This document shows, in pieces, positions 4,920 to 62,823 of a DNA stretch of 64,000 bases. A program made the translations under genes and the position numbers. The notes below the pieces were generated by a model. That model was given only the letters and a program-made list of their open reading frames with translations, was not told the DNA's origin and searched no databases. This DNA comes from Verrucomicrobiia bacterium (GTDB taxonomy: Bacteria > Verrucomicrobiota > Verrucomicrobiia > Chthoniobacterales > UBA6821). The stretch is taken from positions 4,563-68,562 of the forward strand of contig JBEIJN010000005.1 in NCBI GenBank assembly GCA_040380225.1. The letters are read 5' to 3'. The stretch's first letter is position 1; each line of letters begins with the position of its first letter.

Positions 4920-6770
4920 CTAGTGGGAGAACTGGAGGCGGTAGAGATTGGTGTAAACCTCGGAGGAGTTCAACAGTTCGGCATGGGTTCCCGTGGCCAC
5001 GATGCGGCCATGGTCCATGACGACGATCATGTCGCTGCCGAGGACGGTGGAGAGCCGGTGGGCGATGGCGATCACGGTGCGGCCCCGGGAGAGCTTCTCC
5101 AGGGCGTCCTGAATCATCTTCTCGGACTCGGAGTCGAGGGCCGAGGTCGCCTCGTCGAGGAGGAGGACGGGGGCGGCCTTGAGCAGGGCGCGGGCGATGG
5201 CGAGACGCTGCTGCTGGCCGCCGGAGAGGAGGCATCCCTTGTCCCCCACGATCGTCTCGTAGCCGTGGGGCTGGGCCATGATGAAATCGTGGGCGTGTGC
5301 AAGGCGTGCCGCCTCCTCGATCTCGGCCTTTGTGGCGTCGAGACGCCCGAAGCGGATGTTCTCGTAGATCGAGTCGTGGAAGAGAAAGCTCTCCTGCGTC
5401 ACGATGCCGATCTGCTCGCGCAGCGAGAGGAAGGTGAGGTCGCGCAGGTCTCGGCCGTCGATCAGGATCCGGCCCTGCTGCGGGTCGTAGAAGCGGAGCA
5501 GGAGGGCAAGGAGCGTGCTCTTACCCGCACCGCTCGACCCGACCAGCGCGACCTTCATGCCCGGCTCGATGACGAGACTGATCCCGGTGACGGCATTCCC
5601 GCCTTCCTCGCCATGGGGGCCGGTCGTGCCGTAGGAGAAGTTCACCCCCTCGAAGGCGAGATGCCCCCGCGTGGTCTCAAGCGGCATGGCTCCGGGGAGA
5701 TCGTGGATGGAGGGTTTCGTGTCGAGCAGCTCGAGGGTGCTGGTCGCCGCGCCGAGGCAGTTCTGCAGCACGACATGGATGCGGCTGAGGTTCTTGATCG
5801 GGTCGTAGAGCAGGAACATGCCCATGAGCAGCGCGATGAAACTGCCGATGGATAGATGTGAGTAGTGGACGTACACGAGCGCGAGGGCGACACCGCAGGC
5901 CGAGACGCTCTCCATCATGGGCTGGACGATGGCGGTGCTCTTCTTGACCTTCATGCCGGAGCGGAACTGCTCGTCGCTCGACTTGTCAAAGAGCCGGAGC
6001 TGGAAGGCCTCCCGCGCGAAGGACTTGATGACGCGGATGCCGGCGAAGGACTCCTGAAGGATCACCGCCATCACCCCGGCCTCGTTCTGCACGGCGCGCG
6101 CGGCCTTGCGGACGCGGCGACCGTAGATGATGACCGGCAGCAGGAAGAGGGGGAAGAGGACAAAGGCGAAGAGGCAGAACTTCCAGTCGATCCGAAGCAA
6201 CACGGCGATCACGCCGATGGCGGTGAGGGGCTGCTTGACCAGTTCCCCGACGATCGAGACCAGCGACTCCTGGGCCATCTGCGTGTCGTTGAGGACGCGG
6301 GAGAGGAGCCGGCCCGACTGGGAACGGCCGAAGAAGTCGAGCGACTGGCGCATCAGGTGACCGAAGACCCGGCGGCGCATGTCGCGCAGGGCGCGCAGGC
6401 TCACCCAGGTGAGATTGTAGACATTCGCGTAGGCCAGCAGGCCGCGCAGGATCATGACGAGCGGGATCGGCAGGATCATCCAGAGGAACTCGGTGACGCC
6501 GCCACCCTGTCCCATCCCGGCTCCCTTGAGCAGATCCGACTGGGAGAACTTCCCGTGGAAGGCTGTGTCGGTGATCGTGCGGACCAGCAGGATGATGCCG
6601 CTGTTGCAGGCGGCGTAGCCGATGCCGGCGAGAAGGCCCAGCGCCAATCGGAATCGGTACGGCTTAAGGAAGGAGGCCAGCTTCGCGTAGGTCTCCCAAT
6701 CGCTTCCCAAAAAGCGGAAGATCCCCGAGCGATGCTTCTGCCCGTGTTGCTGCTGCGCGTGTGCTGACAT
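4920..6770 (-). CDS. ABC transporter, fused permease/ATPase (MsbA-like lipid exporter)
   Basis: 616 aa. Six-TM N-terminal domain, Walker [10 protein letters not shown], signature [14 protein letters not shown], Walker [12 protein letters not shown]. Confidence 0.85.
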
Positions 6771-6912
6771 GAAGCGAAAACCTTACAGGGAGTCTTGACG
6801 CGGCAGGAGCAAAAAACCGCCCCTTCCGGGATTTATGGGAGTTCCAAGTTGAAGTTTAAGTTGAAGGGGGATGGCACCTTCCCCCTATCTCCCATTCCCT
6901 ATCCCCCAACCC

Positions 6913-8037
6913 CTAACTCCCCCTTACCCAGGACAGGTAGAGATCGATCATCCCCGGTCCGGCAAAAACCCAGAGGGATGCCCCAAGCGCCAGGTATGGG
7001 CCGAATGGGATCCGGCCCCCCGAGCGGCCACGGGTGGCGACCATCAGGGCCACTCCGACCAGCGCCCCCACCATCGATCCGGCGAAAAGGGAGAAAAGCG
7101 CCCCCTTCCAACCCAGAAATGCACCGATGCAGGCCAGGAACTTCACATCGCCGAATCCCATCGCCTCGCGGGGCAGCATCACCTCCGTCACGTCGGCCCG
7201 GATCGGCATCGCCTCCGTGAGCGTGGCCAGCGGCCACTCGCGCCCCCCGTAACGGATACCCGCGTGGGTGATCGTCAGGGTGTCGGCTTCAAGAACAGAG
7301 CCGTCGATCTCAAGACGCGTGCAGAGGGCCTCGATCCGATCGCTCTCCCGGTAGAAGAATTCCGCCAGCGGAACACTCTCCCCGCCCAGCGCGAGCACCG
7401 GATCCTCATCGCTGCCGGTGATTTCCAGCGGAAGCATGGAGCCATCCCCCTCCGCGCGGATACGACGGCGGCCGAAGGCGAGTTTGCCCAGTTCCACCAC
7501 CATCCAGAGCAGGAGGTAACCGCAAGCCGCCCCAAGCAGGGAAAGGAGCAGCCCCCGCCACCAGAGCGATTCACCCACCAGGGAGGGCGCCAAGGTCGCG
7601 CACAGGACTCCGGCCGCCGTTCCGCCCAGGGTGATCTCGTCGGGAATGATCAGGTGATCGAAGTCGATGAAGGTCGCCGCCACGAGCAGAGAGAGGAAGA
7701 TCCAGAAGATCGGTGCCAGCGGCAGGCCGAAGCGCCCCCAGGCCAGCAGGTAGAGGCATGCCGTGAGCAGTTCCACCAGCGGATAGCGGAGGGCGATCGG
7801 CAGGGCGCACCCGGAGCACCGCCCGCGGAGCAGCACCCAGCTGGCGACGGGGAGATTCTCATGCCACGGGATGGTCTTTCCGCAGCCTGGGCAGAAGGAG
7901 CGGCGGGGATTGAGCAGCGAGATCCCGCGCGGGAGCCGGTGGATGACCGCGTTGAGGAACGAGCCGGTGATCAGCCCGAGCAGGCCGACCGCGATCCATG
8001 CGATCCACGCGGGCATCGTTGGCGCGGCGCAGTTCAA
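6913..8037 (-). CDS. type IV prepilin peptidase (A24 family) with a long cytoplasmic insertion
   Basis: N-terminal CPGC...CSGC zinc motif. Catalytic Asp motifs are FDHLIIPD (D133) and GFGDVKF (D297). About 100 extra residues lie between them compared with the usual enzyme. Confidence 0.85.
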   Translation of the reverse strand: MNCAAPTMPAWIAWIAVGLLGLITGSFLNAVIHRLPRGISLLNPRRSFCPGCGKTIPWHENLPVASWVLLRGRCSGCALPIALRYPLVELLTACLYLLAWGRFGLPLAPIFWIFLSLLVAATFIDFDHLIIPDEITLGGTAAGVLCATLAPSLVGESLWWRGLLLSLLGAACGYLLLWMVVELGKLAFGRRRIRAEGDGSMLPLEITGSDEDPVLALGGESVPLAEFFYRESDRIEALCTRLEIDGSVLEADTLTITHAGIRYGGREWPLATLTEAMPIRADVTEVMLPREAMGFGDVKFLACIGAFLGWKGALFSLFAGSMVGALVGVALMVATRGRSGGRIPFGPYLALGASLWVFAGPGMIDLYLSWVRGS

Positions 8038-8628: not shown

Positions 8629-8847
8629 TGGACGGAAGCACTGGGGTGCGTCAAGAGACCAAGCTATCGGAGCGGGGTGTTGGATCGCGCAGAGGCGCAG
8701 AGAACGCAGAGAATGATACCACCCTTCACTCACAGAAGGATCCTTACTTTCCCAAGAACTCCGCACTCTGCGGGAGATTTCTCATGAAACAAAGTCTCCC
8801 CTCCCTGCATTGACACCTTTCCGGCCAACGGCTTTCATCCTCAGCGC

Positions 8848-16576: not shown

Positions 16577-16660
16577 GCTCGGGTGGTGAAATGGCAGACA
16601 CGTACGTTTGAGGGGCGTATGCCGAAAGGCATGGGGGTTCAAGTCCCCCCCCGAGCACCA
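16577..16660 (+). tRNA. tRNA-Leu (anticodon GAG)
   Basis: Hand-folded. Acceptor gctcggg/cccgagc, anticodon stem tacgt/gcgta with loop ttGAGgg, long variable arm tgccgaaaggcat, T arm ggggg-ttcaagt-ccccc, encoded ACCA. Confidence 0.9.
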
Positions 16661-34506: not shown

Positions 34507-36399
34507 TCAGGCTTTCTGCGGGGGATCAATCAGGATCTCGGCTTTGAAAATCTCGAGGGCCTTTCGGATGAGCGGATCGCTTTTGAACTCCTCCAGCTCT
34601 GCGGCGCTGATCGCGGGCGTTGCTGGTTCCGGGGCCGTCTGCTTGGGGGCAGCTTCGGTGGGTTTGCCCGCCGTGCGGTTTGTTTGCGACACCTCCTTGG
34701 TGGATGGAGCGGGAGCGGCGACCGGTTCCGGTTCCGGAGGAGCGGGCGGCTCCTCTCCGGTGAAGCGGTATTCGAAGGTGATCTTCACGCCGAGTGCCGC
34801 CGTGAGCTGCTCCTCGATTTTTTTCACCGCCTGCGGCCAGAAAAGCGTCTGCGTCTGCTGCTCCAGCGACGGAGGGAACTCCACCAGGATGGCATTGCCG
34901 ATCCGCTCGATGAAGCGCCCATCCTCAACCCATCCGAATTTCAGCGGCGAGTCGGCAGCCAGTTTCATCGCCACGTCCTGCCAGGGGTCGGAGGAACTGG
35001 GAGTTGGGGGCTGGGAACCAAGGCTCTGGGAAGAGCCGCGGACGACTGACGTAGTCAGCTCCGCAGGGGCTGCACCGCTTCCCGGGAGGGAAGTGCCGTC
35101 ATCTGGGGATTCAACCGGTGTGGGTTTCGATTCAGCCTTGGGCGGTTCGATCCGGATGGGATCAACGGGAAGAGGGGCGGCTTTGGGAACTGGCGCTGGT
35201 GAGGGAGCCGGTGCGGCGACCGGTGCCGTGGGACGGGTAGCCGGTGGGCGCGCCACAGGACGATCCGGGAGGGGTGCGCCGCCGCGAAGCGCGGTGAGCG
35301 TGTCGAGCACGTCGCTGAGGCTTGCCTCCTCGAGGAGATGCACTCCCTTGATGAGGGCGACATCGAGCTGGAGCTTCTTGTCGGTGGCCCAGCGGAGGCG
35401 GCCTTCCGCCTCGCCGAAGTGATCCAGCAGGACCAGGAGCTTCTCCTGGGAGATCGCCTCCCCGAGCCTCGCTTCCTCGGTCGCTTCCGCAGACGGGTGG
35501 ACCTTGCCGATCAGGATATCGCGGAGCAATCCAACGAGATCGCCAAGCAGTCGAGCCAGATCCTTGCCGGCCTCGGCCTGACTCTTCACGACGGCCAGTG
35601 TGGCGGGCGTGTCGCGGGCGACGAGGGCTCCTGCAAGCTCCAGGACGGTCTCGCGCGGCGTGAATCCGAAGACGTTGTGGACATCGGCGGCGCCGATCGT
35701 CGTGCCGCAGAAGGCGACGACCTGATCGAGCATCGACTCGGCGTCACGCATCGCCCCGTCAGCCCCGCGCGCGATCGTGGCGGCGGCAGCGGGATCTAGT
35801 GCGATCTTCTCGTTCTTGGCGATGTGCAGCAGATGGTCGGCGATGAGTTCCGGCGTCAGTCGCCTCAGGTCGAAGCGCTGGCATCGGCTGAGGATGGTGG
35901 CCGGCACCTTCTGCGCCTCGGTCGTGGCGAAGAGGAACTTCACGTGCTCCGGCGGCTCTTCCAGCGTCTTGAGCAACGCGTTGAAGGCCGCGGTCGAGAG
36001 CATGTGCACCTCGTCGATGAGGTAGACCTTGTAGGGTCCGCGGGCCGGGGCGTAGGCGGCGTTCTCTCGAAGCGTGCGGATGCTATCGACGCTGTTGTTG
36101 CTCGCCCCGTCGATCTCCATCACGTCGAGGCTGCGTCCCTCGGCGATCTCGACGCAGGCATCGCAGGTGCCGCAGGGATTGTCGGTCGGCTCGCCCTTGT
36201 TGGAGAGACAGTTGAGGGCCTTGGCCAGGATGCGGGCCGAGGAGGTCTTCCCCACGCCGCGGGGACCGACGAAGAGGTAGGCCTGCGCGAGCCGCTTGCC
36301 GGTGATCGCGTTCTGGAGCGTCCGGGTGATGTGTTCCTGGCCCACGACCTCCTCGAAGCGTTGGGGACGGTATTTGCGGGCGAAGACTCGGTAGCTCAC
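34507..36399 (-). CDS. dnaX: DNA polymerase III subunit tau (gamma/tau)
   Basis: 630 aa. FVGPRGVGKTS Walker A, zinc module CGTCDAC, IDEVHMLS, then a Pro/Ala-rich linker and a tau C-terminal region. Confidence 0.9.
   Translation of the reverse strand: MSYRVFARKYRPQRFEEVVGQEHITRTLQNAITGKRLAQAYLFVGPRGVGKTSSARILAKALNCLSNKGEPTDNPCGTCDACVEIAEGRSLDVMEIDGASNNSVDSIRTLRENAAYAPARGPYKVYLIDEVHMLSTAAFNALLKTLEEPPEHVKFLFATTEAQKVPATILSRCQRFDLRRLTPELIADHLLHIAKNEKIALDPAAAATIARGADGAMRDAESMLDQVVAFCGTTIGAADVHNVFGFTPRETVLELAGALVARDTPATLAVVKSQAEAGKDLARLLGDLVGLLRDILIGKVHPSAEATEEARLGEAISQEKLLVLLDHFGEAEGRLRWATDKKLQLDVALIKGVHLLEEASLSDVLDTLTALRGGAPLPDRPVARPPATRPTAPVAAPAPSPAPVPKAAPLPVDPIRIEPPKAESKPTPVESPDDGTSLPGSGAAPAELTTSVVRGSSQSLGSQPPTPSSSDPWQDVAMKLAADSPLKFGWVEDGRFIERIGNAILVEFPPSLEQQTQTLFWPQAVKKIEEQLTAALGVKITFEYRFTGEEPPAPPEPEPVAAPAPSTKEVSQTNRTAGKPTEAAPKQTAPEPATPAISAAELEEFKSDPLIRKALEIFKAEILIDPPQKA
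35016..35112. repeat. family-L multi-hairpin repeat copy embedded in-frame in dnaX (codons ~430-462)
   Basis: 35016-35040 is identical over 25 nt to 59156-59180. The next ~70 nt align with the family-L core, and all four hairpins are retained. Confidence 0.65.
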
Positions 36400-50016: not shown

Positions 50017-50350
50017 GTTATAAAGTTAGAACGTTGAAGCGTTGCAACCAAGGCGCTGAAACGAGCCCATGGGGTGGTCGAGTTGTATAGTCTCCGAAGG
50101 TGGACCCAAAGGGTGCGCCTTGCGGGAGTAAGCGATTACAAAAGAGCTGCGTAAGACTACGACGAAGTCGTTGCCCAAAGGGCGCCACCGCTTGCCGGGC
50201 GCAAGTGACGTCAAAGTGGATCACTACAGCCCTGATCTGAATATCGAGAAGGCGAATCAGAGAATTCGTCGCAACTGCACGGGCCGAAGAGACGAATCAA
50301 GGTTTCCACTTCAGTCCCTTGTAACCCTTTTAACGCTGTAACATTTTAAC
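50017..50350. repeat. family-L multi-hairpin repeat, copy 1 (candidate structured RNA or MITE)
   Basis: Shares caaccaaggc-ctg...gagc and gcgtaagactacgacgaagtcgt-gcccaaagggcgccaccgcttgccgg...gcaagtg-cgtcaa..tggatc and acttcag-cccttgtaac with 59135..59382. Its ends are inverted arrays of GTTNNAAN 8-mers. Confidence 0.6.
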
Positions 50351-57155: not shown

Positions 57156-59066
57156 ATGTGGAACACAGCCATGTTCACCTACCCAACTCATTTTGATGTC
57201 CTTGTGATCGGCGCCGGGCACGCCGGGATCGAAGCTGCTCATGCGGCGGCAACGATGGGGGCGCAGACTCTCCTGCTCACCCAGAATGCCGACACGATCG
57301 GCCAGATGTCATGTAACCCCGCCATCGGGGGCCTGGCCAAGGGACACATGGTTCGCGAGATCGACGCGCTCGGGGGTCTCATGGGTCTCAATACCGATGC
57401 CACCGGCATCCAGTTCCGGATGCTCAATGCTTCCAAGGGACCCAGCGTCCGTGCACCCAGAGCTCAATGTGATAAGAAAGCCTATCAATTTCGGGTTAAG
57501 GCGATCCTCGAGAATCTTCCCAATCTCAGCCTCAAGCAGGCCAATATCACCTCGCTCGTCGTCGAAGGAGACCGGGTGGTAGGTGCAGAGACGAACATTG
57601 GCCTTCGTTTTCTGGCAAGGAGTGTGATCATCACCACAGGGACATTCATGAGGGGGCTCCTCCATGTCGGCCTGAATAATCAACCCGGAGGACGCATGGG
57701 TGATGCCCTATCCACCCTGAGTGACAACCTCAAGCACCTTGGATTTGAAGTAGGGAGATTCAAGACCGGCACACCTTGCCGCCTTCTTGCCAAGTCGATC
57801 GACTTTGCCCGTTGCGAACGACAGGAAGGAGACACCCCCATCCCCCTCTTCTCGCACATACCGGAGAGCATTGAGTGGCGGAAGGATGATCTCCATACGT
57901 TGAATCATCATGATCCTGAGAAGGGAATGTTCCATGTGGAACAAATTCCCTGCTGGATCACCTACACCAACGAGGAGACCCATGAGATCATCCGTTCGAA
58001 CCTCCACCAATCTCCTCTCTACGCTGGAGTGATCGATGGGGTGGGACCGCGATACTGCCCCTCCATCGAGGATAAGGTGGTTAAGTTTGCAGAGAAGCCG
58101 CGCCATCAGATTTTCTTGGAACCGGAAGGGAGGCATACGGGAGAGATCTACGTGAACGGCGTCTCCACAAGCCTTCCTTATGAAGTGCAGTATGCCTTCA
58201 TCCGCTCCATCCCGGCACTTGAGAATGCCGAGATTCTGCGACCCGGCTATGCGGTCGAGTATGATTACTGCCCCCCTCACCAGCTCCATGCCACGCTCGA
58301 GACCAAGCGGATCGAGGGCCTCTACTTCGCGGGCCAGATCAACGGCACCTCGGGATACGAAGAGGCGGCGGCCCAGGGTCTCATGGCCGGAATCAACGCC
58401 GCCCTCAAGGTTCAGTCGAAGCCCCCTTTCCAACTGGGCCGGGAGGAGGCCTACATCGGGGTCATGATCGATGATCTCGTTACGAGGGGGACACCCGAGC
58501 CCTATCGGATGTTCACCAGCCGCGCGGAATACAGACTGCGACTGCGTCAGGATAATTGTGATATCAGATTGACGGACAAGGCTTTAGATCTAGGAACAGC
58601 TTGTGAATACCGCTCTCGCGTTTACCGAGCCAAGCGCGAAGCCCTCCAGTCCCTTTCAAAGGAAGTCCTTCATATTCAACATGATGGACTACAATTAGCC
58701 CAGTGGCTCAAGCGTACCGGGAACGAACCAAACAAGCTTCCCGCCGATATCTATGGCCGATACAGCCCGGAGATTTGGGGGCTGGTCGAGACAGACCTCA
58801 AGTATGAGGGATATCTACGCCGGGAGCAGGATCAGATAGAGCGCCAGCGCGGACAAGAGGCGCAGACGATCCCCAGTGGGATCGACTACGATGCCATTCC
58901 GAGCATGCGCCTTGAGGCGAGGCAGAAACTCCACTCCTACGCTCCCGAGACATTGGGTCAGGCTTCACGCATCAGCGGGATCACCCCTGCCGACATTTCC
59001 GTCCTGGCAGTCTGGATCAGGAAACTCGCAGCTGGGCAGGATTCCGGGAGAGGGGAAAGGGATTAA
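57156..59066 (+). CDS. mnmG: tRNA uridine-5-carboxymethylaminomethyl(34) synthesis enzyme
   Basis: [16 protein letters not shown], full-length GidA pattern, about 630 aa. An alternative start lies at 57171. Confidence 0.95.
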
Positions 59067-59134
59067 GAGTTAGGAAGTTGAACCCGGAATTTGCATAGGA
59101 AATTTCTGAGAACATAGGAGGCCGTGTGAAAAGA

Positions 59135-59382
59135 GTTAAAAAGGTGAAATGCTACAACCAAGGCTCTGGGAAGAGCCGCGTAAGACTACGACGAAGTCGT
59201 AGCCCAAAGGGCGCCACCGCTTGCCGGCAGGCAAGTGGCGTCAACATGGATCCGGGAGAGCCCTGACTCGGGATTCGGGAGGGGGAGGTAAGGGAAAGTG
59301 CCGTCAAAAGATGCCTTCATGAGTTCTATTCAGCCTCTGACTTCAGCCCCTTGTAACTTTTTAACATTGTAACGCTTTTAAC
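59135..59382. repeat. family-L multi-hairpin repeat, copy 2 (candidate structured RNA or MITE)
   Basis: Four consecutive hairpins: ggctct-GGGA-agagcc; ctacgac-GAA-gtcgtag; gccc-AAA-gggc; cgcca/cttgcc-GGCA-ggcaag/tggcg. It sits in the convergent mnmG/STAS spacer. Confidence 0.6.
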
Positions 59383-59489
59383 CATTTCGGGACCCACCTT
59401 CCGGGTGAAACAACCAGACCTGTCGCCGCTACCCAATCCCCCATCCCCAAGTACCTATTCCCAATCCCCAACCCCCTACTTACCCGCAG

Positions 59490-59834
59490 TCAGCCTGCCC
59501 GCAGCAGCCTACCCGCAGCAGCCTCGGGCGTCTCCTCGATGATGAAGAGATCCTCGAGCCCTGCCAGGTGGAAAAGTTCCCGCACGGGCTGCCCGAGCGA
59601 GGCAAAAGCCAACCCACCGCCAGCAGCCGACAGATGCCGCTGGCACATGAGAAAGACCCGGAGGCCCGCGCTGCTCACGTAGGTGAGAGAGGAACACTCC
59701 ATGATGAGCTTGGCACCCGCCGCCTCATACAACGGCGTGAGCCGCTCCTCCAGAACGGGGCTGGTCGCCACATCCAAGCGTCCGGCAAGCGCAAAGACGG
59801 GAATGCCATCGGCAAGTGAAAGGGTGATCTCCAT
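59490..59834 (-). CDS. STAS-domain anti-sigma-factor antagonist
   Basis: Start at MEITLSLADGIPVFALAGRLD. YVSSAGLRV motif with the phosphorylatable Ser context. Confidence 0.8.
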   Translation of the reverse strand: MEITLSLADGIPVFALAGRLDVATSPVLEERLTPLYEAAGAKLIMECSSLTYVSSAGLRVFLMCQRHLSAAGGGLAFASLGQPVRELFHLAGLEDLFIIEETPEAAAGRLLRAG

Positions 59835-62029: not shown

Positions 62030-62542
62030 ATGAGCATCTATCTCAACGAACCGCCGGACGAGGATCCGATCATCGATCTTACCAGCGATGCCTATTTCAT
62101 GGGTCAAGCGATGCGTCAGGCCCTGAAGGCCTACGAGGCCGAGGAGGTACCGATCGGAGCCGTCGTCGTGCGCGAGGGGAAGATCATCGCCCGTGCCGCG
62201 AACCAGGTCGAGACGCTCAAGGATGCGACCGCCCACGCCGAGATGCTCGCCATCACCCAGGCCGAGAACGCGCTGGGAGACTGGCGCCTGAACGACTGTG
62301 ATCTCTATGTGACCAAGGAGCCGTGCCCGATGTGTGCCGGCGCGCTCGTCCATGCACGGCTTCGCCGCGTCATCTTCGGATGCCACGACTCAAGGGGAGG
62401 TGCGGCTGGCGGCCTCATCAACATCCTCCAGATGCCCGAGCTCAACCACCGCTGCGAGATCAGCGGCGGCATCCTCGGAAACGAATCGGCACAACTGCTG
62501 AAAGCCTTTTTCTCCGAGCGAAGGGGAAACACCGGAAGCTGA
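62030..62542 (+). CDS. tadA: tRNA adenosine(34) deaminase
   Basis: HAEM and PCPMCAGA zinc-binding motifs, 170 aa. Confidence 0.9.
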   Translation: MSIYLNEPPDEDPIIDLTSDAYFMGQAMRQALKAYEAEEVPIGAVVVREGKIIARAANQVETLKDATAHAEMLAITQAENALGDWRLNDCDLYVTKEPCPMCAGALVHARLRRVIFGCHDSRGGAAGGLINILQMPELNHRCEISGGILGNESAQLLKAFFSERRGNTGS

Positions 62543-62619
62543 AGGCTATAATTAGGAACCCTGGAAAAGTCAGCGATAGAGGGGTGGCATAACTTCTCGG
62601 GAGATAAGTGCCACTAAGT

Positions 62620-62653
62620 AGGCTGTTAGGCTGTAGACTGTTAGACTATTAGG
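62620..62653. repeat. family-T array of YCTAAYAG-type 8-mers (inverted copy of 16793..16826)
   Basis: aggctgttaggctgtagactgttagactattagg. Further related words extend to about 62695. Confidence 0.75.
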
Positions 62654-62823
62654 GGGAAGGAATCCAAGCAGCCTGTTAGACTCTAGCTTATTAAAGGGTG
62701 GGCGATTAACGGTGTTTTGGAATCCACGGTTTGGATGCCTTCCGCAAAATTTTGTTGAGCTAGGGGCTGAAGTATCGGCTTCCTGATCGACTCGGTATGG
62801 TGTTTGGATCACCATCATCCCGC

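Follow-up and report, generated by a model that had tools for sequence, protein, structure and literature searches.

Open reading frames (ORFs) are known to harbour REP and Rickettsia palindromic elements (RPEs), as is also reported for the verrucomicrobium Opitutus terrae (PMC3733652). REPs, which form GTAG- and CGTC-tagged superfamilies, are single palindromes of 20–40 bp and occur mostly as head-to-head or tail-to-tail dimers (PMC3733652). Here we describe a module of ∼87 nt with four hairpins, one copy of which lies in dnaX of a 64,000-nt stretch of Verrucomicrobiia DNA (the window). Like RPEs, it is a dispersed hairpin repeat that occurs both between genes and in frame in an essential protein, with a tolerated peptide at a flexible site, and its presence varies among orthologs. 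The resemblance is functional only, as the host belongs to another phylum (Verrucomicrobiota) and there is no known sequence relationship. Whereas an RPE is one long palindrome, the module consists of four separate hairpins; also unlike RPEs, it occurs in head-to-tail arrays, has flanks of heptanucleotide tandem repeats and is present in phages.

With REP/BIME elements the module shares small GC-rich palindromes, high copy number, clustering, occasional location in ORFs and stems that covary between copies, and its invariant CGTC(AA) end, although it closes the fourth helix of a larger unit, may correspond to a CGTC tag with a short tail. In contrast to a single 20–40-bp palindrome, it is an 87-nt unit whose four helices contain 28 covarying pairs, it is mostly single or head-to-tail instead of forming head-to-head or tail-to-tail dimers, and no RAYT transposase gene was seen near it (8-kb flanks, 78 loci). 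MITEs such as Correia/NEMIS, ERIC and Nezha are similarly non-autonomous, multi-copy and co-transcribable, and can nest and insert in frame. The ends of the 87-nt module, AACCAAG and CGTCAA, are not inverted repeats and it has no obvious target-site duplication, so we rejected a MITE assignment for the module itself; clear terminal inverted repeats are seen in the family consensus of a ∼420-nt composite repeat at 59 kb. An IS608-like element (TTAC flank, TCAA end) was also rejected, as the tetranucleotide at the 5' flank varies among copies (TTAC, GATG, GTTG, GCGG, TGGG, CCTG) and no Y1 transposase was found. Tandem heptanucleotide repeats comparable to the flanks of the module include the cyanobacterial STRR. 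Direct repeats of the heptamer TAACTGA are found between genes in Beggiatoaceae, Cyanobacteria and Bacteroidetes (PMC4679880). These too form tandem intergenic arrays, often just upstream of start codons, whereas the heptamers described here vary in sequence and flank a structured module.

The dnaX copy and its counterparts in the window

A sequence-only reading of the window had reported a 25-nt identity between dnaX and an intergenic locus. This identity is real: AACCAAGGCTCTGGGAAGAGCCGCG occurs at 35016–35040 and 59156–59180 and nowhere else in the window, both times on the + strand and with a chance expectation of 0. The homology extends further, with 79.5% identity over 88 nt. The four hairpins described for both copies were also confirmed, from the sequence and the alignment. 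H1 has the same sequence in the two copies, whereas H2 is ctgac-gta-gtcag in dnaX and ctacgac-gaa-gtcgtag at 59 kb, H3 ctcc-gca-gggg and ccc-aaa-ggg, and H4 cttccc-ggga-gggaag and cttgcc-ggca-ggcaag, respectively. A covariance model of the repeat matched the dnaX copy over its full length (35017–35102, 76.8 bits, E = 4.7e-13), and RNA folding gave z-scores of -2.5 for the + strand and -2.0 for the - strand, which corresponds to dnaX mRNA. The 59-kb copy scored 101 bits with a fold z-score of -4.0.

Features of the dnaX locus and of related repeats in the window
Feature	Position	Strand	Basis or remark
dnaX (DNA polymerase III tau)	34507..36399	-	ORF, 630 aa; Pfam domains; orthologs
Heptanucleotide tandem-repeat flank (ggaggaa ctgggag ttggggg ctggga)	34990..35015	+	translated QPPTPSS
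dnaX copy of four-hairpin module	35016..35103	+ (antisense to dnaX)	covariance-model match, sequence, RNA folding
Hairpins of dnaX copy	H1 35022-35037; H2 35046-35058; H3 35059-35069	+	
H4 and basal stem of dnaX copy; tail gtcatc	35070-35098; 35098-35103	+	
Long module variant	50046..50214	+	diverged module (AAACGAG...GTACAA-like) nested in H1 loop
Composite repeat, ∼420 nt, MITE-like	59078..59465	+	has the 59157 module and a partial second module
Module copy, best preserved in window	59157..59244	+	intergenic, between mnmG and STAS gene
Degenerate module (62514-62617), then hepta/octamer repeats	62514..62655	+	weak match, 23.7 bits, E 0.0065

Two things had escaped the earlier reading: the antisense orientation of the module in dnaX, and the presence of further copies, a third at 50137–50214 and a degenerate fourth at 62514–62617. 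The third copy is the H2–H4 part of the long variant and matches the model with 56.5 bits, its H1 being replaced; the same architecture, with a module nested in H1, was found in loci L004, L022, L043, L044 and L071. The repeats after the fourth copy read GTAGGCT GTTAGGCT GTAGACT GTTAGACT. The ∼420-nt composite has more than 12 copies in related genome bins with 82–88% identity. Its consensus ends in the terminal inverted repeats TTAACCCGGAATTTGCAT and ATGCAAAATCTGGGTTTAA, and the window copy is without the right one.

The Pfam domains of DnaX are DNA_pol3_delta2, an ATPase lid and gamma3, the last of which ends at residue 357. The module is hosted by the linker that follows domain III (residues ∼358 to 475) and is read through as 29 codons (residues 433–461, DGTSLPGSGAAPAELTTSVVRGSSQSLGS). 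Module copies are thus both intergenic and within an ORF, the dnaX copy is in frame, and the C-terminal region downstream of it shows in-frame conservation in all orthologs. We infer that the module, together with its usual heptanucleotide flank, came to lie in the disordered, Pro/Ser-rich linker that joins domain III to the C-terminal tau region. As the module is free of stops in this antisense frame and its length does not shift the frame, it would simply add 29 translated, tolerated residues to the linker, just as RPEs and some REPs are tolerated within proteins.

A repeat family of freshwater Chthoniobacterales

The module has the general form 5'-AACCAAG-H1-CGCGGWAGA-H2-H3-H4-CGTCAA. A strict 22-base pattern identified 78 loci, with 16–21 matches per genome bin, all in Spartobacteria/Chthoniobacterales bins apart from one bin labelled Proteobacteria. 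The covariance model recovered 115 copies in 602 kb, 83 of which were intergenic according to a crude gene call; all comparison sequences came from genome bins or metagenome assemblies. Rfam 15 gave no match in the window and none on the modules in 18 related loci, with only noise up to E = 10 at 58950–59550, and literature searches found no description of the 87-nt four-hairpin repeat. It is a previously undescribed repeat family of a clade of freshwater Chthoniobacterales ('Spartobacteria', Verrucomicrobiota) to which the Lake Mendota bins belong. Copies are also present in phage contigs, and the phages that carry them apparently infect these Chthoniobacterales.

In a structure alignment that was fitted to the model, 94.8% of cells were paired, compared with 75.6% in shuffles and 34–51% with slid partners, and double changes occurred family-wide at 26 of the 28 pairs. 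The 3' end CGTCA, which closes the fourth helix of the larger unit, is invariant across the family, and GTAG, though common ahead of H3, is not conserved. A GCGG/CCGC pseudoknot may also form. Heptamer flanks of the kind seen in dnaX accompany other family copies and vary in sequence (NNNCTGA, GGATGA, GGCGGA, CTGGGAG). Head-to-tail arrays with spacers of 0–21 nt were found at L008, L029, L065, L024, L045, L059 and L040, inverted pairs being a minority. Hints of mobility are that modules occur inside the H1 loops of other modules, in tandem arrays and in phage contigs.

Full, short and absent alleles of dnaX

Alignment of dnaX orthologs, a check proposed along with the original observation, showed that the segment is an insertion/deletion polymorphism. 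Full alleles (P0001-3 and P0019) carry ...DGT-SLPGSGAAPA(E/G)LTTSVVRGS-SQSLGS, 16 close relatives have the short form DG[TS]SQSLGS, and ∼100 other DnaX orthologs have nothing comparable at the site. In nucleotide sequence, the short alleles have AACCAAGGCTCTGGGAAG before and NNCCGTCAAC after the junction and are exactly 60 nt shorter; they keep both module termini, and the missing central stretch lies between two direct repeats of GGGAAG, one in the loop and 3' arm of H1 and the other in the loop and 3' arm of H4. The DnaX tree has full alleles scattered among short ones, and the central 60 nt were lost recurrently by deletion between the GGGAAG repeats. The heptamer flank expands and contracts among orthologs in 21-nt steps: P0001 and P0002 differ by a 21-nt indel, and other alleles have longer arrays.

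A second, distant DnaX lineage recently exchanged its old remnant for a full module. P0019 and P0037 are ∼5% different gene-wide, yet they differ at 40 of 76 and 30 of 100 nt across the linker. The P0019 module differs from the clade-A allele at only 1 of 84 nt, whereas the ATPase domains of P0019 and clade A are 17% different (39% at third codon positions). As a full copy with 1 of 84 nt changed has replaced an old remnant, the element still spreads, although selection rather than recent transfer could also explain why full alleles are nearly identical in divergent lineages.

Covariation between the stems of the dnaX and 59-kb copies had been taken as a sign of selection on a fold inside dnaX. 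This argument does not hold: because the copies compared are paralogs from different subfamilies, stem covariation reflects a family-wide constraint. The five substitutions among six full-length dnaX alleles comprise two that break pairs, one wobble, one in a loop and one in the conserved tail, with no compensatory pair. The window copy itself, in which a G-to-T change breaks a pair and the invariant tail is also altered, scores 76.8 bits compared with 87.7 bits for the canonical dnaX allele. A metagenome scan for the dnaX-specific variant turned up a single further allele, with the canonical sequence, too little to test the substitution pattern.

Origin and possible roles of the dnaX segment

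Together, the dispersed structured family and the indel polymorphism among dnaX orthologs support the suggestion of the sequence-only reading that a palindromic element entered a protein: the dnaX segment is probably an RPE-like passenger insertion of a new repeat family. Its hairpins would serve the propagation of the element or a family-level role, as single-stranded DNA or RNA, rather than DnaX, and the module would have no dedicated role in dnaX expression. Spread may occur by hairpin-dependent insertion, or by ectopic recombination through the termini and heptamer arrays. Counting against the passenger interpretation, all-against-all BLASTP of 2,428 ORFs from the 8-kb flanks of the 78 loci revealed no transposase, RAYT, reverse transcriptase or other multi-copy protein, and recovered only orthologous neighbour genes and ORFs reading through the repeat. 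We regard it as rather unlikely, though worth considering, that the module represents a structured nucleic acid of a new, self-propagating class, either an RNA copied back into DNA or a single-stranded-DNA element. Such an RNA might be catalytic or recruit a protein, and the single-stranded DNA might be handled by some enzyme; both routes would have the module 'home' to remnants of itself and to heptamer arrays. Homing would explain the remnant replacement in the 17%-diverged lineage, nesting in loops and carriage by phages.

A different possibility is that the modules represent a functional structured RNA with the window + strand as sense, the dnaX copy being a nested RNA gene or cis-antisense element, or that the family acts in mRNA leaders and trailers. 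Covariation is very strong, and that strand has two GGGA loops and, in H3, occasionally GUAA or UUCG. Together with the variable lengths of helices H1 and H2 and an excess of G-U over A-C pairs among family copies (53 versus 34), these GNRA-type loops resemble a functional RNA more than a typical MITE or REP, which speaks against a mere passenger. Moreover, all three copies in one phage contig lie 18–20 nt from a start codon, and in host genomes 32 copies are within 120 nt of a divergent gene start compared with 13 in sense-leader position. However, orientation to neighbouring genes is mixed: the 5' end of the module tends modestly toward the gene boundary with no clear sense or antisense rule, and GC skew was too weak to show how modules are oriented relative to replication. 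Scans around both intergenic copies found no promoter, and the sole terminator-like feature was a weak one, the H1 hairpin read on the minus strand. A family that numbers dozens of copies, forms tandem arrays, nests and shows presence/absence polymorphism looks like a typical selfish repeat, and close relatives have the dnaX copy deleted. We consider a functional RNA an improbable, though not negligible, explanation.

Explanations specific to dnaX fare worse. In E. coli, stable mRNA hairpins about two-thirds along dnaX are part of the gamma/tau signal, and the module lies at a similar relative position (69–73% of the gene), so that its hairpins could direct programmed frameshifting or premature termination and give a shorter, gamma-like DnaX. 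A z-score of -2.0 indicates that the mRNA strand retains a fold, and H1 in reverse complement, with UUGGUU after it, is weakly terminator-like in the 59-kb copy. Unlike in E. coli, neither A_AAA_AAG nor any other canonical X_XXY_YYZ slippery site precedes the structure, no -1 stop lies nearby and orthologs do not conserve the signal. The sole in-frame heptamer, C_CCG_GGA, lies inside the H4 loop with Y = G, and the -1 frame has no stop for 48 codons from that site. As the central 60 nt are missing in 16 close orthologs, most orthologs are without the module and its position merely coincides with the only long disordered linker of DnaX, the recoding idea fails and is highly improbable. Likewise, the 25-nt identity would make a 59-kb transcript antisense to dnaX mRNA, and a trans-acting small RNA had been proposed on this basis. 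Yet no other 5' variant of the family is as common as the 25-mer, which 12 of 115 copies have and which recurs exactly in nine further loci, so the match is generic and does not define a dedicated pair. The scans of the 59-kb copy found no promoter, the matching stretch is itself locked in hairpin H1, and short dnaX alleles keep just 18 nt of the 25-mer. A dedicated pairing of this kind is extremely improbable. Finally, the inserted peptide DGTSLPGSGAAPAGLTTSVVRGSSQSLGS could itself be under selection as a functional linker module within tau, as the antisense frame starting V-D-G-T is common to dnaX and the xseA 5' region and the full allele is nearly identical across clades. Such conservation covers all 28 third codon positions, which is unexpected under peptide selection, whereas two of the few substitutions alter an amino acid, the xseA version differs in sequence and close relatives do without it. 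Selection on the peptide is therefore very unlikely.

If the dnaX segment is a passenger insertion, small structured repeats can colonize essential replication genes outside Rickettsia, in abundant uncultured lake bacteria. For annotation, the locus is a warning that hairpins and 'covariation' in a coding region can come from a repeat family and need not mean a local regulatory RNA. The covariance model and more than 115 examples are available for a strongly covarying repeat or RNA motif absent from Rfam. Full, short and absent dnaX alleles, together with the recent replacement, provide a natural marker for the birth, decay and re-invasion of the element in lake metagenomes.

A dispersed family of structured repeats

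The module copy in dnaX encodes DnaX residues 433-461 (69-73% along the gene), and the DnaX clamp-loader domains (Pfam) stop at residue 357. A 25-mer of this copy (35016-35040) recurs exactly at 59156-59180, in an intergenic copy at 59 kb; no such match is expected by chance, and the two copies share 79.5% identity over 88 nt. Both this perfect identity and the hairpins described for the two copies by the sequence-only reading were borne out. As all four copies in the window lie on the + strand, the dnaX copy is antisense to its host gene.

The H4 region supplied a degenerate 22-base pattern, CACCGCTTNCCGGN{4,5}AAGTGNCGTCA, with which we scanned one genome per species (185,579 species). It matched 78 loci, all in freshwater 'Spartobacteria'/Chthoniobacterales genome bins and one bin labelled Proteobacteria, with 16-21 matches per bin. 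The ~87-nt unit runs from AACCAAG through H1 (6 bp, GGGA-type loop), CGCGGWAGA, a sequence-variable H2 (5-7 bp or longer) and H3 (CCC/GGG with a 3-4-nt loop) to a 4-bp stem, a bulge, H4 (CTTGCC-GGGA-GGCAAG) and a final CGTCAA. From 55 copies we built a covariance model, which found 115 copies in 602 kb. In the resulting alignment pairing was strong: 94.8% of cells were paired, versus 75.6% in shuffles and 34-51% when partners were slid, and 26/28 pairs showed double changes. Fitting the alignment to the model inflates these figures somewhat. Even so, compensatory changes in H1 were already visible by RNAalifold on a plain MAFFT alignment, as was a perfect 27:27 G-C/C-G switch at the H4 base. 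An excess of G-U over A-C (53:34) and GNRA-type loops weakly favour the window + strand. An Rfam 15 scan of the window and related loci returned no family matching the module, and a literature search found no description of it. The whole-window scan at Rfam gathering thresholds gave zero matches, the tRNA model included; ARAGORN placed a tRNA-Leu(gag) at 16577-16660.

Module copies and associated features (window coordinates unless a locus is named)
Feature	Position	Strand	Remarks
dnaX	34507..36399	minus	630 aa; host gene of module copy
dnaX module copy	35016-35103	+	
Third module copy	50137-50214	+	
Composite repeat	59078-59465		whole mnmG-STAS intergenic region
59-kb module copy	59157-59244	+	
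Degenerate fourth module	62514-62617	+	23.7 bits, E 0.0065 (covariance model; weak); just past ORF 62030..62542
Phage modules, L090 (IMG/VR contig; also L089, L091, L092)	1923-2010, 5727-5815, 8699-8787		three in 7 kb

Full, short and absent alleles of dnaX

The 120 DnaX relatives compared fell into three states: full, remnant and unrelated linker. The full peptide was present in 4/120 (P0001 of the window, P0002, P0003 and P0019), DG[TS]SQSLGS in 16/120, and the remaining relatives had unrelated linker sequence. In the DNA of nine orthologs, the short allele reads AACCAAGGCTCTGGGAAG|NNCCGTCAAC. Both module termini are kept, and exactly 60 nt are missing between direct repeats of GGGAAG, one in the loop and 3' arm of H1 and the other in the loop and 3' arm of H4. 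The short alleles are therefore remnants of internal deletion rather than empty sites. On the DnaX tree they are intermingled with full alleles, indicating recurrent deletion, and the heptamer flank varies among alleles in 21-nt steps.

P0019 is from a DnaX clade distinct from clade A. The ATPase domains of the two clades are 17% different (39% at third codon positions), whereas the modules differ at only 1/84 nt and 0/28 third positions. P0037, a close relative of P0019 and ~5% divergent gene-wide, has a short, decayed remnant (SDVTSQGLNT) together with SNLP repeats; these genes differ at 40/76 and 30/100 nt, in the linker only. At the DNA level (L081 versus L087), ~130 nt of linker is replaced in one of the two genes (gene nt ~1300-1500), which are otherwise ~95% identical. 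Given the remnant in P0037 and divergence confined to the linker, the full P0019 module is a recent replacement of an old remnant and brought along its own heptamer triplet. The element alone has thus recently moved laterally or undergone gene conversion, which argues against ancient constraint as the source of the near-identity. Selection favouring the full allele may be an alternative.

Function of the dnaX segment

The sequence-only reading took stem covariation as selection on a fold within dnaX. The stem differences between the dnaX and 59-kb copies separate paralogous subfamilies, and we found no compensatory substitution among the five changes in six full dnaX alleles (window, L079, L080, L081, L032 and L088), three of which are identical. 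In the window allele, a C-to-T in H3 gives a U-G wobble on the + strand and an A-C mismatch in the mRNA, a basal H4 pair is broken by a G-to-T, and the invariant GTCAA tail carries an A-to-T. P0003 shows a synonymous T-to-G that breaks an H2 pair, and P0019 a non-synonymous G-to-T in the H3 loop. Against the covariance model the window dnaX copy scores 76.8 bits, while the canonical dnaX allele reaches 87.7 and intergenic copies ~100. The folding z-score of the window dnaX copy is -2.5 (+ strand) or -2.0 (- strand), versus -4.0 for the 59-kb copy. With this weaker score and fold it looks like a decaying passenger. A function of the inserted peptide itself is disfavoured, as every third codon position is conserved and the few substitutions include non-synonymous ones.

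A position at about two-thirds of dnaX had also suggested frameshifting by the hairpins, but no canonical slippery heptamer lies upstream of the structure. The sole in-frame X_XXY_YYZ, C_CCG_GGA, falls within the H4 loop, the -1 frame has no stop for 48 codons, and the structure is absent from close dnaX relatives. An A7 run in the C-terminal region (~34818-34824, gene nt 1576-1582) is probably no slippage signal, since its conservation does not extend to the P0019 ortholog. The proposed small RNA from the 59-kb copy, pairing with dnaX through the 25-mer, fared no better: no other 5' variant in the family is as common as this one (12/115 copies, exact in nine other loci), and a promoter scan at the 59-kb copy found none. 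The original observation is confirmed and its interpretation is partly right: the inserted element is supported; fold selection within dnaX, recoding and the small RNA are not. At the level of the family, a functional RNA may still be involved, and most of the remaining uncertainty comes from this reading.

Genomic settings and known repeats

By a crude gene call, 83/115 copies are intergenic. Orientation relative to neighbouring genes is mixed, with the 5' end towards the gene boundary about twice as often as the 3' end. Head-to-tail arrays are common (spacers 0-21 nt), and a diverged module is nested in the H1 loop of the 50-kb copy and several others. Flanks consist of tandem heptanucleotide repeats that differ between loci and are usually identical on both sides (for example TTATGAA, AAGCTGA, GGCGGAA, CTGGGAG). 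Such locus-specific arrays flank almost every module (e.g. L040 340-400, L008 6226-6274, window 34990-35015), often occupying the gap to an opposite-strand start codon; the fourth module is followed by hepta/octamer repeats GTAGGCT GTTAGGCT GTAGACT GTTAGACT, up to 62655. The 59-kb copy sits within a ~420-nt MITE-like composite repeat whose terminal inverted repeats are clear (TTAACCCGGAATTTGCAT / ATGCAAAATCTGGGTTTAA). Related genome bins hold at least 12 copies of the composite at 82-88% identity; in the one in the window, the right inverted repeat is missing. A phage structural-gene cluster (GpA-type terminase on L090, lambda-type portal, S49 protease) carries three modules in intergenic gaps, all (3/3) antisense to phage genes and ending 18-20 nt from a start codon. 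A different variant, antisense and with its frame open, sits 15 codons upstream of the xseA (exonuclease VII large subunit) OB-fold (L027 930-1017, L060 4191-4278); it has the V-D-G-T reading frame of dnaX, is flanked by heptamer-derived SQLP repeats, and may be translated or lie in the 5' leader.

The heptamer arrays recall cyanobacterial STRR repeats. They also resemble the TAACTGA repeats of Beggiatoaceae (PMC4679880). The systems that behave most like the module are Rickettsia palindromic elements and REPs within ORFs, the latter reported in the verrucomicrobium Opitutus terrae (PMC3733652). The module itself was rejected as a REP (four helices over 87 nt, head-to-tail arrays) and as a MITE (no terminal inverted repeats). 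No recurrent protein gene accompanies modules within 8 kb of their loci. With its invariant CGTC(AA) end the module resembles CGTC-tagged REPs, which likewise are not known to have a dedicated transposase.

Other hairpin modules, such as GCGTGGGAACGC-GGCTTAGTCATNCGAAG... and GAGTGCCGGGAGGCACGGCGTAGCC..., recur in mixed arrays with the 87-nt module (L009 ~6900-7060, L077 ~1370-1525, L010 2860-3160, L075 4860-4970), which suggests that these genomes hold a larger set of structured repeats. Membership in a dispersed family and the full, short and absent alleles support the proposed Rickettsia-like insertion of a palindromic repeat into a protein: the dnaX segment is an unstable insertion, translated and tolerated, from a new family of structured repeats.
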